This document shows positions 1,139 to 47,170 of a stretch of DNA of 64,000 nt, piece after piece. The DNA comes from Escherichia phage JM17. The notes under the pieces were generated by a model. That model searched no databases, was not told where the DNA came from, and saw only the letters and a program-made list of their open reading frames with translations. The position numbers and the translations under genes were made by a program. How positions within the stretch are numbered: position 1 is the first letter of the stretch; each line of letters starts with the position of its first letter. Where the stretch lies: sequence record PP400779, one strand, 5' to 3'.

Positions 1139-1177
1139 GATTTACAAACTCTTGAGAGCAGAGTATAATGCTCTCAT
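1139..1177 (+). promoter_or_regulatory. early-type promoter with -10 embedded in an 8-bp inverted repeat
   Basis: atttac -35, tataat 1164-1169; arms tgagagca/tgctctca flank -10; 34-nt core identical to 46602-46635. Confidence 0.45.
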
Positions 1178-24478: not shown

Positions 24479-24507
24479 GTTTACTTCTCCAGTAGTTGTG
24501 TTATTAT
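24479..24507 (+). promoter_or_regulatory. early-type promoter
   Basis: gtttac 24479-24484, 17-nt spacer, tattat 24502-24507. Confidence 0.45.
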
Positions 24508-24533
24508 AGATCTATCAACTACCGGAGAACAAA

Positions 24534-24851
24534 ATGAAAACCATCGATTGTAAAGCAGAATTTAAGATTTTTTATCATGGTTCAAGTAGTTCAGCTAACA
24601 TCGAAAACATGCTTTGTCCTCCTGAAGAAACAGGAGTTCTGTCTGAAACTGGACGTAAGAAAAACTTGGATCGTGTATTCTTTACTGAAGATATCGGTTT
24701 AGCAAAGATTTATGCAGGACGAGCAGCACGCTCTTATGGAGGTGAACCACGTCTCTATCGAGTAATTTCTCCGGTAGATGTAGTTCAAATGAATGATACT
24801 AAAGGTGCTACAGTTTATCACGCTGAATGGGCATTTTGCGAGGAAATATGA
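24534..24851 (+). CDS. hypothetical protein (105 aa)
   Basis: ORF with ggagaacaaaATG RBS; contains YHGSS...Y...E pattern (weak ART-like hint). Confidence 0.4.
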   Translation: MKTIDCKAEFKIFYHGSSSSANIENMLCPPEETGVLSETGRKKNLDRVFFTEDIGLAKIYAGRAARSYGGEPRLYRVISPVDVVQMNDTKGATVYHAEWAFCEEI

Positions 24852-31786: not shown

Positions 31787-31815
31787 TGTACAAACTCTAC
31801 AGACGATGATACTAT
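31786..31815 (+). promoter_or_regulatory. early-type promoter
   Basis: gtgtac(a) -35 variant, spacer 18, gatactata. Confidence 0.4.
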
Positions 31816-35659: not shown

Positions 35660-35689
35660 GTTTACAACCAAGGATGGTTGGAGTATAAT
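35660..35689 (+). promoter_or_regulatory. early-type promoter
   Basis: gtttac 35660-35665, spacer 18, tataat 35684-35689. Confidence 0.5.
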
Positions 35690-35719
35690 GAATCTATCTT
35701 AAACAAAGAGAGAAAAAAT

Positions 35720-36184
35720 ATGATTAATATTGGTGAAATTAAACGTGTATCGACAGCGTCTCGTTCTAAAGCTGCAGGAAAGCTGGTTGAAGTAGTAGGA
35801 CTTCGTACTAATGGCATGGGCCGTATTAAAGAAGTTAAAGTTCGAATCATTCCTAGTTCTGGAAAAACTGAAACTCAGTTCGCCTATGTAAGTCCTAAAT
35901 TCTTGGAAACTCGTGTACGTGTCCAATTTGCTTCAAGCGATATCGTTGAGCCTACTACACAGTTCAAATGGGCCCTTTGCAAAGGCGTTGAATTTATAAC
36001 CGATAAAGAATTTGATTACATCGACGAATACGGTTATCCAAGCAAAACTGATACTATGTGCGGCTTCATCAGCGACCAATGGGTTGAAGATGGTAAAAAG
36101 CTATACAATATTGTATTCTTAGGTGACTTCCGAGTTGTTGAAGAATCTGAAATCACTCGCTATGTGTCTCCTCGTAAAGCTTAA
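35720..36184 (+). CDS. hypothetical protein, paralog A of a tandem pair (MotB position)
   Basis: 154 aa from ATG 35720; shares SRSKAAGKLVEV..VKVR..G..YV...F.E...QFKW.LC..V core with next ORF. Confidence 0.45.
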   Translation: MINIGEIKRVSTASRSKAAGKLVEVVGLRTNGMGRIKEVKVRIIPSSGKTETQFAYVSPKFLETRVRVQFASSDIVEPTTQFKWALCKGVEFITDKEFDYIDEYGYPSKTDTMCGFISDQWVEDGKKLYNIVFLGDFRVVEESEITRYVSPRKA

Positions 36185-36617: not shown

Positions 36618-36646
36618 GTTTACTTCTCCTCTGGTTTTGATATTAT
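36618..36646 (+). promoter_or_regulatory. early-type promoter
   Basis: gtttac 36618-36623, 17-nt spacer, tattat. Confidence 0.45.
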
Positions 36647-36672
36647 AACCATATCAACCAGAGGAGAATAAT

Positions 36673-37197
36673 ATGTTAGTTTACCGCGTAGAACGTAGTT
36701 TTTGTACTCAACGTGAATCATTACCAGGAATTGCTATCGAAGACGGTAAAGCCGTCAGAATTTGGGAAACCTCTTGGAATAAAGAACCTCGCTCGCCATA
36801 CGGTTGGTCGGGCACCGACAACTCTGAAGAAACATGGGAGTTCCTTGATAAGCATGGAATACTCTCAGGTAACTTCTACCATCACGGCGACAACTATAAT
36901 GTCCCTAATCGTCCTACAGTAAATGAAGACAAACTCCTTGAACAAAATATCTTAAGATACTATAGAATTGAGCACGCATTTGAATTGAGTGAAGATTGGG
37001 CTCAAGGGTTCTATTTTGGATTTGAAAGTGTTGACGCGGTTTATGCATGGTTTGATGACCAGGTGGATGTTGAACTCTTGAAAGCTAAAGGATACTACAT
37101 CGCGGTCTATGAAGCACCTGATTTCATCCTCGGAAGTTGTCAATTAATGTTTAGACGTTCATTGGCAGAACAAGTTGATTTTATTTTGCTAAAATGA
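36673..37197 (+). CDS. hypothetical protein (174 aa)
   Basis: ORF with accagaggagaataat RBS. Confidence 0.4.
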   Translation: MLVYRVERSFCTQRESLPGIAIEDGKAVRIWETSWNKEPRSPYGWSGTDNSEETWEFLDKHGILSGNFYHHGDNYNVPNRPTVNEDKLLEQNILRYYRIEHAFELSEDWAQGFYFGFESVDAVYAWFDDQVDVELLKAKGYYIAVYEAPDFILGSCQLMFRRSLAEQVDFILLK

Positions 37198-44995: not shown

Positions 44996-45018
44996 GGGGA
45001 CTTCGGTCCCCTTTTTTC
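44996..45018 (+). terminator. intrinsic terminator (UUCG hairpin + T-run)
   Basis: ggggac-ttcg-gtcccc followed by tttttt. Confidence 0.7.
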
Positions 45019-45824: not shown

Positions 45825-45860
45825 GTTTACAACTAAGTAGGACTATGATATAGTAGTCCT
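45825..45860 (+). promoter_or_regulatory. promoter/stem-loop cassette (early promoter + IR aggacta/tagtcct)
   Basis: gtttac 45825-45830, spacer 18, tatagt 45849-45854; 7-bp inverted repeat spans the -10. Confidence 0.45.
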
Positions 45861-45880
45861 ATCTAAAAGAGGATAACATC

Positions 45881-46144
45881 ATGAAATTTAAATTTTTCTA
45901 CGCAAAACATAAAGTAACAGGCGAATTTGTTTCAATGTACAACACCGCAGATGACGAAGGGATGATTTATACCCATTTGGGACTATCTCATTGGGACTCA
46001 GACGTGCCTTATATGTCATCTGAAGCCGAAATAACTCGTTTAGTTAATGGACATATGAACGACCATTTTGGTGTTATTCTTTCTAAAGACCTTAAAGAGG
46101 TTATCAACAAAGGATATATGGAACTCGCGGAAGTTGAGATATGA
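45881..46144 (+). CDS. hypothetical protein (87 aa)
   Basis: ORF with aagaggataacatc RBS after promoter cassette. Confidence 0.35.
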   Translation: MKFKFFYAKHKVTGEFVSMYNTADDEGMIYTHLGLSHWDSDVPYMSSEAEITRLVNGHMNDHFGVILSKDLKEVINKGYMELAEVEI

Positions 46145-46336: not shown

Positions 46337-46372
46337 GTTTACATCACGGTAGGATTATGGTATAGTAGTCCT
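46337..46372 (+). promoter_or_regulatory. promoter/stem-loop cassette
   Basis: gtttac 46337-46342, spacer 18, tatagt 46361-46366; tatagtagtcct module. Confidence 0.45.
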
Positions 46373-46394
46373 ACTGAAACATGAGGAACACAAA

Positions 46395-46595
46395 ATGGCT
46401 AAGCTTTTTAAAGATGTTGAAATTGGTGAAAAATTTGTTCTGAATAACGGTCAGCAGCTTATTCGTGTAGCTTCTATCGCCGGACAAACTCATAACTGTA
46501 TCGCCCCAACGTGTTGGACTCGATTCTTTATTGAAGATGACACTGAATGTTTAACTGTTGAAGAGCTTTTTGAACGTTCTGATATGGCCGAATAA
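46395..46595 (+). CDS. hypothetical protein (66 aa)
   Basis: ORF downstream of promoter cassette. Confidence 0.35.
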   Translation: MAKLFKDVEIGEKFVLNNGQQLIRVASIAGQTHNCIAPTCWTRFFIEDDTECLTVEELFERSDMAE

Positions 46596-46597
46596 AA

Positions 46598-46635
46598 TTG
46601 TACAAACTCTTGAGAGCAGAGTATAATGCTCTCAT
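46598..46635 (+). promoter_or_regulatory. early-type promoter with palindromic -10 (duplicate of 1139-1177 element)
   Basis: ttgtac -35, tataat 46622-46627; 34-nt identity with 1144-1177. Confidence 0.45.
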
Positions 46636-46671
46636 GGATTACAAAAACATTAATCAATTGAGGAAATTAGC

Positions 46672-47118
46672 ATGTCCAAATATTTAACTCGTAAAGACCT
46701 TCTGGCAGTTGGCGGTGAAGTTGTTGCAGTAGTTCGTAATGGCGAATACGGTTCTGAAGTTTCTAAAGAGTTTCGTTCTCGTGAAGGTTTTTACTTCTTC
46801 GTTAAAGGTTCATCTGATTGGCGACAAGTAGCAGCACGATTCTTTGTAGGACGTCAACGTTCTAAACAAGGGTTGGATGCAATTCTTTCTCACATTCGTC
46901 AAGGCCGTTCACAACTAGCCCGTACCATGGGCACTAACAATATTGAATATGATGTAATCTTTGTTGCAGCTAAGAACATGAAACCACTGACCACTGGTTA
47001 TGGTAAAGGTCAATTGGCTCTGGCATTCACTCGCAACCATACATCAGAATATCAAACACTCACTGAAATGAACCGTCTTCTGGCAGATAATTTCAAATTC
47101 ATTCTGCAGAGTTACTAA
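46672..47118 (+). CDS. ndd: Ndd-like protein (nucleoid disruption), tentative
   Basis: 148 aa; size and position between rIIB and 52; sequence recollection of T4 Ndd is weak. Confidence 0.4.
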
Positions 47119-47170
47119 TTTATACAGGCCTATTAAGTTGGGCCTTTAATTTATTTTTGAGGTAATTAAA

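Follow-up and report, generated by a model that had tools for sequence, protein, structure and literature searches.

A 64,000-nucleotide (nt) stretch of Escherichia phage JM17 (record PP400779), referred to here as the window, comes from a Mosigvirus, a T4-type phage of the RB69-like kind, with 97-99% identity to many records, and carries two copies of a short promoter element on its + strand. An initial annotation had reported that the 34-mer ACAAACTCTTGAGAGCAGAGTATAATGCTCTCAT is repeated identically at 1144-1177 and 46602-46635, and had proposed either a mobile promoter plus stem-loop cassette that mediates recombination or a shared operator site. The 34-mer indeed occurs exactly twice in the window, no additional copy was found there with up to three mismatches allowed, and no match was obtained in 100 dinucleotide-preserving shuffles, the chance expectation being 0. 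The exact repeat is, however, 35 nt rather than 34 nt long, as T1143 matches T46601, and sequence search delimits copy 1 at 1143-1177 and copy 2 at 46601-46635, within a surrounding 59-nt block (1131-1189 and 46589-46647) of 83% identity. On sequence-testable features, which match, both copies are additional members of the promoter-early stem-loop (PeSL) cassette class described in T4-type phages (PMC2839356, PMC4122927). It is highly probable that each is a compact PeSL-type gene-boundary cassette of this RB69-like phage, in which a promoter, a hairpin and a RegB/S1-type motif are combined in a patch for recombination.

Copy 1 occupies a gap of 69 nt that separates the orthologues of T4 genes 55.3 and 55.2, with gene 55 about 700 nt further downstream. 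The 55.3 orthologue (DUF5490; 937-1137, + strand; 62% identity to T4 gp55.3) ends in the stop codon TAA at 1135-1137, and the -35 of copy 1 begins 3 nt beyond it. The 55.2 orthologue (DUF7570, 110 aa; 1207-1539, + strand; 75% identity) begins with the ATG at 1207-1209, preceded on the same strand by a Shine-Dalgarno (SD) sequence, GAGG, at 1195-1198. Copy 2 occupies the 76-nt gap between an ndd.1-type open reading frame (ORF) of 66 aa (46395-46595, + strand), which clusters with the ndd.1 annotated in VR7 and has its stop codon at 46593-46595, and ndd (Pfam Phage_T4_Ndd; 46672-47118, + strand), which has an SD sequence, GAGG, at 46660-46663 and its ATG at 46672. Both copies set in 3 nt past the upstream stop and have GAGG and then ATG at their far end, and the genes that follow, encoding a DUF7570 protein (the T4 55.2 orthologue) in one case and Ndd in the other, are unrelated, as previously stated. 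A further ATG, within the TATAATG of copy 1 (1168-1170), is in frame with the 55.2 orthologue and is used as the start in some GenBank records, such as that of phage F2 (L005 1171-1542, 123 aa). The true start is likely to be 1207, because the ATG at 1168 precedes the position at which transcription is predicted to start and lacks an SD sequence.

The promoter hexamers of both copies are separated by a 17-nt spacer, with TTTACA (1141-1146) and TATAAT (1164-1169) in copy 1 and TGTACA (46599-46604) and TATAAT (46622-46627) in copy 2, all on the + strand. The -35 had been given as (g/a)tttaca for both copies, which holds for copy 1, where TTTACA is present, but not for copy 2. The sites score 11/12 (copy 1) and 10/12 (copy 2) against the sigma-70 consensus, with a perfect -10 and a -35 of the T4 early type, and it is from this geometry that both copies are taken to be probable active early promoters in this phage, with transcription predicted to start at A1176 in copy 1 and A46634 in copy 2. 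Further upstream, copy 2 reads GAATAAAATT and copy 1 reads AAAAAGTTCGGATAACGA, which is moderately AT-rich and partly coding, and most members of the wider family described below read AAAAATAGT. A strong stem restricted to the -10 region is found at four of the 27 candidate promoter sites in the window (1141, 45826, 46338 and 46599), and the early promoters of this phage do not in general have such a hairpin.

The hairpin of copy 1 consists of a 5' arm, TGAGAGCA (1153-1160), a loop, GAGTATAA (1161-1168), and a 3' arm, TGCTCTCA (1169-1176), on the + strand. The hairpin of copy 2 spans 46611-46634 on the same strand, with arms at 46611-46618 and 46627-46634 and the loop at 46619-46626. The arm sequences of the initial annotation are correct, but the TATAAT hexamer does not lie wholly between the 8-bp arms, since the 3' arm begins with its last T and only the remainder falls in the loop. 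The 8-bp stem with its 8-nt loop folds at -12.6 to -13.9 kcal/mol (z about -4.2), an energy within the lowest 0.2% of 38-nt background windows, whereas leaders with their 5' end at the predicted +1 lack structure (z +0.7 to +0.8). An Rfam scan of the whole window gave no family above threshold.

An exact 25-mer scan of IMG/VR returned three contigs, which was too few, and metagenomic and viral contigs were instead scanned with degenerate patterns, using ACAAACTCT-N8-GAGTATAAT, in which the 5' arm is free and the 3' arm lies outside the pattern. The contexts recovered were bimodal: 26 have 1-5 of the 8 possible pairs, as by chance, 40 have 7-8 pairs, and none has 6. The 40 family contexts come from four T-even genera and all have T(T/G/A)TACA as the -35 and, downstream, GGA(G/T), neither of which is part of the pattern. 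They contain 18 arm combinations, for example TGGGACCA/TGGTCCTG, TGGGAGTA/TACTCCCA and TGGGGTCA/TGACCCCA. In an ungapped alignment (A1), 98% of cells are paired, compared to 35-54% with the partner slid, and both partners have changed in five of the eight stem pairs. The covariation score of 0.499 compares with 0.259 for shuffled alignments and was reached by none of 500 shuffles. This compensatory covariation indicates that the hairpin is under selection. The non-Watson-Crick stem pairs, read on the + strand, comprise 18 G.U and two A.C, and judged from these patterns the hairpin is selected on the + strand, as RNA or as non-template DNA, and not as a double-stranded palindrome. The base 7 nt past the -10, which is the final base of the 3' arm, is A in both window copies and a purine throughout the 32 distinct family sequences (column 47), which is what a nucleotide at the start of transcription would be expected to be. 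The spacer segment ACTCT (1148-1152, + strand, in copy 1) is the same in every T-even family member, and in those of T4 type it can pair with GGAGU.

Hairpins that straddle the -10 were also seen outside the T-even group. Eight viral contigs unrelated to T-even phages (L116, L137, L142, L148, L158, L159, L177 and L179) carry promoters of the form TTTACAA-N5-GAAGTCTA-GAGTATAA-TAGATTTA, several of them with an ATG 1-2 nt past the stem, which suggests that the design of a promoter inside a hairpin recurs beyond the T4 group.

A motif directly 3' of the hairpin, which was absent from the initial annotation, as was the extension of the family to T4 itself, is conserved alongside the stem. GGA(G/T) is located 1-2 nt past the stem and is followed by an A-rich run in all 40 contexts, and GGAKRAYARAA is matched at 10 or more of its 11 positions in 31 of them. 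Strong intergenic sites of the RegB/S1 endoribonuclease follow the consensus GGA(G/U) plus a 7-nt A-rich segment, GGAGAAUAAAA (PMC3014915, PMC1702504). In the model substrate, motB RNA, positions 5 and 7 are U and positions 9 and 10 are A (GGAG-UAUAAAA), and motB mRNA is cleaved in vivo at this sequence (PMC1702504). The motif of the T4 family member is GGAG-UAUAAAA, exactly the motB substrate site. GGAU sites are cleaved at only two places in T4, one of which is in ORF 55.2, and require a strict AAUAAAA tail (PMC1702504). The candidate site of copy 1, GGATAATAAAA (1179-1189, + strand), combines GGAU with this strict tail and satisfies the published sequence rule, and its 11-mer, GGAUAAUAAAA, is identical to the one at the T4 55.3/55.2 junction, where RegB cuts in vivo. 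Copy 2 has a weaker RegB-type motif, GGATTACAAAA / GGAUUACAAAA (46636-46646, + strand). RB69 possesses a divergent regB and one of its GGAU sites is cut (PMC3014915, PMC1702504), and RegB may, judging by the motif, cleave at the two window copies, of which copy 2 is the weaker candidate.

The T4 motB promoter and leader (Durand et al. 2006, PMC1702504) are a true homologue of the window copies, with the structure TTTACAAACTCT-TGGGACCA-GAGTATAA-TGGTCCCG-T-GGAGTATAAAA, and represent the same cassette with a co-varied stem. The motB promoter has been mapped, with reverse-transcriptase stops assigned to it in the legend to Fig. 5 of that study. T4 motB has GGAG where the window copies have GGAU, and the strict AAUAAAA tail is present in copy 1 but not in copy 2. 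In T4 motB read-through RNA, the invariant ACUCU is predicted to pair with GGAGU, producing a 13-bp stem of -19.7 kcal/mol that buries GGAG and hides the RegB site, whereas the stem extension in the window is 3 bp in copy 2 and zero in copy 1. The GGA would be fully paired in read-through RNA of the T4 motB homologue, weakly paired (3 bp) in copy 2 and free in copy 1. As ACTCT does not vary among any of the T-even members, even if the pattern leaves it free, covariation is uninformative about the ACUCU/GGAGU pairing. At two other T4 junctions the hairpin is found without a complete promoter: 55.3/55.2 has a hairpin with a UUCG loop followed by UUUUU and GGAUAAUAAAA but no promoter, and ndd.1/ndd has a hairpin plus GGAGUAGAAAA but no -35. 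Because the hairpin and the RNase-type motif persist where the promoter is missing, the comparison points to an RNA-level role of both on read-through transcripts.

The core of the repeat is present only in Mosigvirus records (160 records, 347 places, 1-3 per genome). A genome-wide search for further copies had been recommended in the initial annotation, and a third copy does exist outside the window, in RB69, at the frd.3|e.6 junction upstream of e.6. A 167.6-kb Mosigvirus contig contains four family members, the fourth of which is more diverged (C[A/G]GGAGCA/TGCTCCTA), and this fourth member was sought in the window but not found. Co-varied homologues are located upstream of motB in T4, T2 and T6, and others are present in Gaprivervirus (VR7, VR25 and VR26) and Dhakavirus (JS98, VR5 and QL01). 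The 55.2, ndd and e.6 cassettes of Mosigvirus all have the stem TGAGAGCA/TGCTCTC(A/G), whereas the orthologous cassettes of other genera differ from one another, with TGGGACCA at 55.2, TGGGGTCA at ndd and TGGGAGTA at e.6, and stem pair 3 is G-C in every one of them. A derived A-U at this pair is confined to Mosigvirus, where all three loci have it (columns 26-45; GC 23, AU 9). The parsimonious explanation is gene conversion or ectopic recombination between the Mosigvirus loci, because an A-U pair needs two substitutions, and a single change copied between loci is much more probable than six substitutions in parallel. A second case of inter-locus exchange is likely in the Gaprivervirus-type contig L068, where the motB stem, TGGGGTCA/TGACCCCA, equals the ndd stem of that genus and related motB loci have TGGGGCCA/TGGTCCCA or TGGGGTCG/TGGCCCCA. 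In other Mosigviruses, copies 1 and 2 differ by 1-3 bases, one variant showing a compensatory change from C-G to A-U, and from this comparison the exact identity of the copies in the window is partly contingent.

Both loci coincide with insertions or deletions (indels) of single ORFs that are bounded by cassettes in relatives, so that the association with gene-content breakpoints anticipated in the initial annotation is observed. At locus 1, F2, LH01 and several metagenomic relatives possess an additional 79-aa ORFan exactly at the position of copy 1, and the insert begins at the 'TACAA' in the -35 of another stem-loop promoter (arms ACGATAGGAAGA/TCTTCCTATCGT) and reaches as far as the 'TACAA' in the -35 of the copy 1 element. 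Dhakavirus has 55.3-[cassette]-55.2 without the ORFan, as in the window, and because both lack it the ORFan is most simply regarded as an insertion. At locus 2, VR26-type genomes and contig L035 have the order ndd.1-[cassette]-114-aa ORF-[cassette]-ndd, in which both cassettes are family members, whereas the window has ndd.1-[cassette]-ndd with a single cassette. VR7 (L104 1575-1605) has kept the ORF, ORF283c, but the cassette of approximately 50 nt between ndd.1 and ORF283c is gone, leaving TAAAATTGAGG / TAAAATTGAGGAAATC (compare L035 and L095). The cassette itself therefore appears to behave as an insertion/deletion unit independent of genes, as it is missing in VR7 but present in VR26-type genomes. 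The e.6 copy has alternative upstream genes among relatives.

The stem-loop promoter to the left of the locus 1 ORFan (L005 845-885, L006 845-885, L031, L041, L057 and L101), which is absent from the window, has constant arms, ACGATAGGAAGA/TCTTCCTATCGT, and a loop that is found in both orientations, reading CGTGTTATTA in L057 and its exact reverse complement, TAATAACACG, in L031. In the forward orientation the promoter reads TGTACA-N17-TATTAT on the + strand, and inversion places the -10 on the opposite strand. The two orientations may reflect a small inversion switch or else a neutral flip-flop.

The features of published PeSLs that are found in both copies are a sigma-70 promoter with a spacing of approximately 17 nt, a stable stem-loop overlapping the promoter, an intergenic position ending in SD and ATG, several copies per genome and an association with indels of small ORFs between relatives. 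The PeSLs of RB49 and phi1 (Arbiol et al. 2010, PMC2839356) are likewise intergenic, multi-copy and terminated by SD and ATG, and are flanked by small ORFs gained or lost between relatives, but they belong to another phage genus, whereas the cassettes described here are from Mosigvirus. The RB49 stem that was tested is of polyG/polyC type, while the stems here are mixed-sequence 8-mers with no U-tract, and it is for RB49 and phi1 that promoter, terminator and mini-circle activities have been shown. The PeSLs of T4/PST and KVP40/nt-1 (Comeau et al. 2014, PMC4122927) share the T4-group consensus TTTACW-N17-TAYWAT. Their stem-loop is drawn just upstream of the promoter in T4/PST, whereas the stem of the window copies spans the -10 and has its last base at +1. 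That study also described ORF exchanges in the ndd.x region between T4 and PST and 'half PeSLs' with only part of the element, a state that is seen at the T4 ndd.1/ndd and 55.3/55.2 junctions. RB69 is mentioned neither in PMC2839356 nor in PMC4122927, nor together with PeSLs in the searchable literature. RegB, RNases and compensatory changes are likewise absent from the texts of both papers, and the term 'gene conversion', searched in PMC4122927 only, does not occur in that text.

The proposal of a mobile promoter and stem-loop cassette that mediates recombination is thus supported by the match to PeSLs, the promoter geometry, the covariation, the cassette-bounded indels and the derived stem shared by three Mosigvirus loci. 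In the mechanism envisaged, a gap of about 70 nt between two early genes would pack a strong sigma-70 promoter, T(T/G)TACA-17-TATAAT, a hairpin and a RegB/S1-type motif. The 8-bp hairpin would have its 5' arm in the promoter spacer and its 3' arm finishing at the predicted start nucleotide, and the GGA(U/G) and A-rich motif 1-2 nt past the stem would provide the sequence of a RegB/S1 endoribonuclease site. As the cassette transcript would begin at the last base of the stem, its own mRNA would be free of the hairpin and its leader unstructured, and the hairpin would be present only in RNA reading through from the upstream gene. It would there most likely mark or protect the 3' end of the upstream message, either by attenuating read-through or as a cap left after an adjacent RegB cut, and the promoter would then restart expression of the following gene. 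This RNA function of the hairpin is one that we infer. Dispersed, near-identical copies would further provide short homology patches for the very active recombination system of the phage, such that gene conversion could homogenise the copies at different loci and single ORFs could be gained or lost between copies.

Several observations weigh against this reading. The stem is not followed by a U-tract, the 10 nt after it containing on average 3.2 T and 3.95 A in family members, a terminator scan calls neither window hairpin (tails UUGGAUAAUA and UGGAUUACAA), and for these reasons the published 'terminator' role of PeSLs may not apply; the hairpin is not a canonical intrinsic terminator. The G.U asymmetry fits + strand RNA hairpins and non-template DNA hairpins equally well. 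The motif of copy 2 fails the RegB/S1 sequence rule, as it has C at position 7, which never occurs in cleaved T4 RNAs, and lacks the strict tail. The motif is no more than modestly enriched in the window, occurring five times, always on the + strand, against 1.8 expected, and three of 100 shuffles also reach five. The regB gene would, by T4 synteny, lie outside the window, and the promoters, start sites and cleavage at both copies are predictions. At locus 1, the window junction is no simple recombinant of LH01-type flanks, and the indel history there is read from position rather than reconstructed.

The simplest rival explanation is that the copies are two strong early promoters and nothing more, their similarity reflecting an extended T4-type early consensus and the inverted repeat being incidental, with no movement or recombination. 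The T4 early consensus does extend past the -35 and -10 (PMC2988021), TTTACAAACTCT and GAGTATAAT are invariant across genera, and the window promoter at 31787 also has TGTACAAACTCT without an obvious stem. The stem positions, however, vary freely yet stay complementary, and the hairpin is therefore selected in its own right. Together with the same derived compensatory pair at three Mosigvirus loci, whose orthologues elsewhere differ, and with ORF indels bounded by cassettes at both loci, this renders the promoters-only explanation improbable. The shared operator of the initial annotation would be a palindrome around the -10 bound by a dimeric phage or host protein that shuts early promoters off together. 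Such a site would fit an inverted repeat centred on the -10 and copies that are identical within one genome, and the mechanism of early-promoter shut-off is left unexplained in a T4 review (PMC2988021), but the 18 arm combinations with compensatory changes mean that no fixed half-site is conserved, and other genera have different arms among the cassettes of a single genome. The strand-specific excess of G.U over A.C would be mismatches in a duplex palindrome, and T4 55.3/55.2 and ndd.1/ndd keep a hairpin of unrelated sequence without a promoter. With arm sequences changing freely while pairing is kept and wobble pairs asymmetric between strands, the operator proposal is abandoned as extremely improbable.

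A hairpin acting at the DNA level, where a non-template hairpin or cruciform would present the -10 single-stranded or a G+C-rich discriminator would tune the open complex, is compatible with the wobble asymmetry, as the + strand is the non-template strand and the pairs would be G.T, and the 3' arm does double as a G+C-rich discriminator between -10 and +1. A cruciform with an 8-bp stem and an 8-nt loop is, however, energetically unfavourable in duplex DNA. The stem-loops of T4 and RB49 PeSLs lie at various positions relative to the promoter (PMC2839356, PMC4122927), and T4 hairpins are kept at orthologous junctions without a promoter, which indicates a promoter-independent RNA role; an action on DNA is accordingly given little credence. 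A more substantial possibility, although also unlikely, is that the stem-loop is a terminator or attenuator of the upstream gene, as first proposed for PeSLs, and that the GGA(U/G) A-rich motif is a mere conserved leader. The RB49 PeSL stem-loop cut lacZ read-through as strongly as rrnB T1 (PMC2839356), and U5 lies directly 3' of the T4 55.3/55.2 hairpin. The RB49 stem assayed was nevertheless of the polyG/polyC type (PMC2839356), the family has no U-tract past the stem and no call in the terminator scan, and the motif after the stem fits the 11-nt RegB/S1 consensus, with the orthologous T4 sites (motB and 55.2) being cleaved.

A more specific version of the cassette model is put forward tentatively, as it is rather doubtful: the conserved core would be the hairpin and RegB/S1 site with the promoter nested inside, acting as a switch on mRNA fate according to the origin of the transcript. 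If this is true, cassette-born transcripts would expose GGA(G/U) 3-4 nt from the 5' triphosphate, and RegB could decap them and feed them into PNK/RNase E/G decay. Read-through RNA would either hide the site in an extended stem, as in T4 motB, or be cut beside a protective hairpin, as in 55.2. The same 35-60-nt units would be kept identical across loci by gene conversion and would seed single-gene indels. A related arrangement is known for T4 gene e and its relatives (PMC3014915), where the 5' arm also lies upstream of an internal promoter and only read-through RNA folds. Those cases, however, involve late promoters and a hidden ribosome-binding site, whereas in both window copies the SD sequence is 19-26 nt past the stem and exposed.

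PeSL-type cassettes are thought to be one route by which small accessory genes are shuffled in T4-type phages, many of these genes acting in host range or host defence, and the RB69 group would add a fourth well-studied lineage to the class. The covariation of the hairpin and the homogenisation between loci constitute sequence-level support for recombination between copies. The covariation across four genera, the inter-locus homogenisation and the pairing of hairpin with RegB site appear to go beyond known PeSL biology as refinements, and overall the findings are a refinement of known biology and no new principle. The link to mapped T4 RegB sites (motB and 55.2) suggests that the stem-loop may work with an RNase site rather than as a terminator, which, if true, would alter the interpretation of these cassettes both in the annotation of phages and in engineered ones.

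Two neighbouring cassettes with different stems were identified upstream of copy 2. The first (45826-45861, + strand) reads TTTACA-N17-TATAGT, has the arms TAGGACTA/TAGTCCTA and folds at -13.2 kcal/mol, within the lowest 0.3% of background windows. It stands before ORF 45881-46144, which it is predicted to drive. The second (46338-46375, + strand) also reads TTTACA-N17-TATAGT, lies in a 12-bp hairpin of -16.1 kcal/mol and is located before the ndd.1-type ORF, which it is likewise predicted to drive. The sites at 45826, 46338 and 46599 are three successive single-gene promoter/hairpin cassettes before ndd, and the run is flanked by intrinsic-terminator-like sites at 44996-45011 and 47126-47145, a layout for which PeSL mini-circles were reported in RB49.

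Other hairpin-associated promoters in the window are of different types. The motB promoter (35661-35720) reads TTTACA-N17-TATAAT followed by ATGATTAATATTGG and lies outside the ACAAACTCT family, unlike its T4, Gaprivervirus and metagenomic counterparts, and it has a small hairpin, CAACCA/TGGTTG, entirely within the spacer. Promoters at 24480-24536 and 36619-36675 read TTTACT-N16-TATTAT inside long hairpins (-16.1 and -23.9 kcal/mol; z -4.2 and -6.4), the 3' arms of which hold the SD sequence GGAG (GGAGAACAAAA and GGAGAAUAAUA, both RegB-consensus-like). Read-through RNA would conceal this SD sequence and RNAs from the embedded promoter would be unstructured, which follows the logic of gene e, in which the SD is hidden, but with early promoters.

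The motif downstream of the hairpin was also considered as a late promoter. The T4 late promoter consensus is TATAAATA, which some relatives (GGAGTATAAAAT) resemble, but the window copies, AATAAAAT and TTACAAAA, are poor matches and this reading was rejected. Downstream of the 55.2 orthologue, the region 1760-1850, between ORF 1536-1763 and gene 55, resembles a decayed 89-aa ORF that is intact in LH01 (L006 1761-2030), with the start (ATGAAACTA...) and end in common and the middle deleted. A hairpin, TAGGTCT/AGACCTA, is present around TATTATGATATAAT at 1864-1896, before gene 55.

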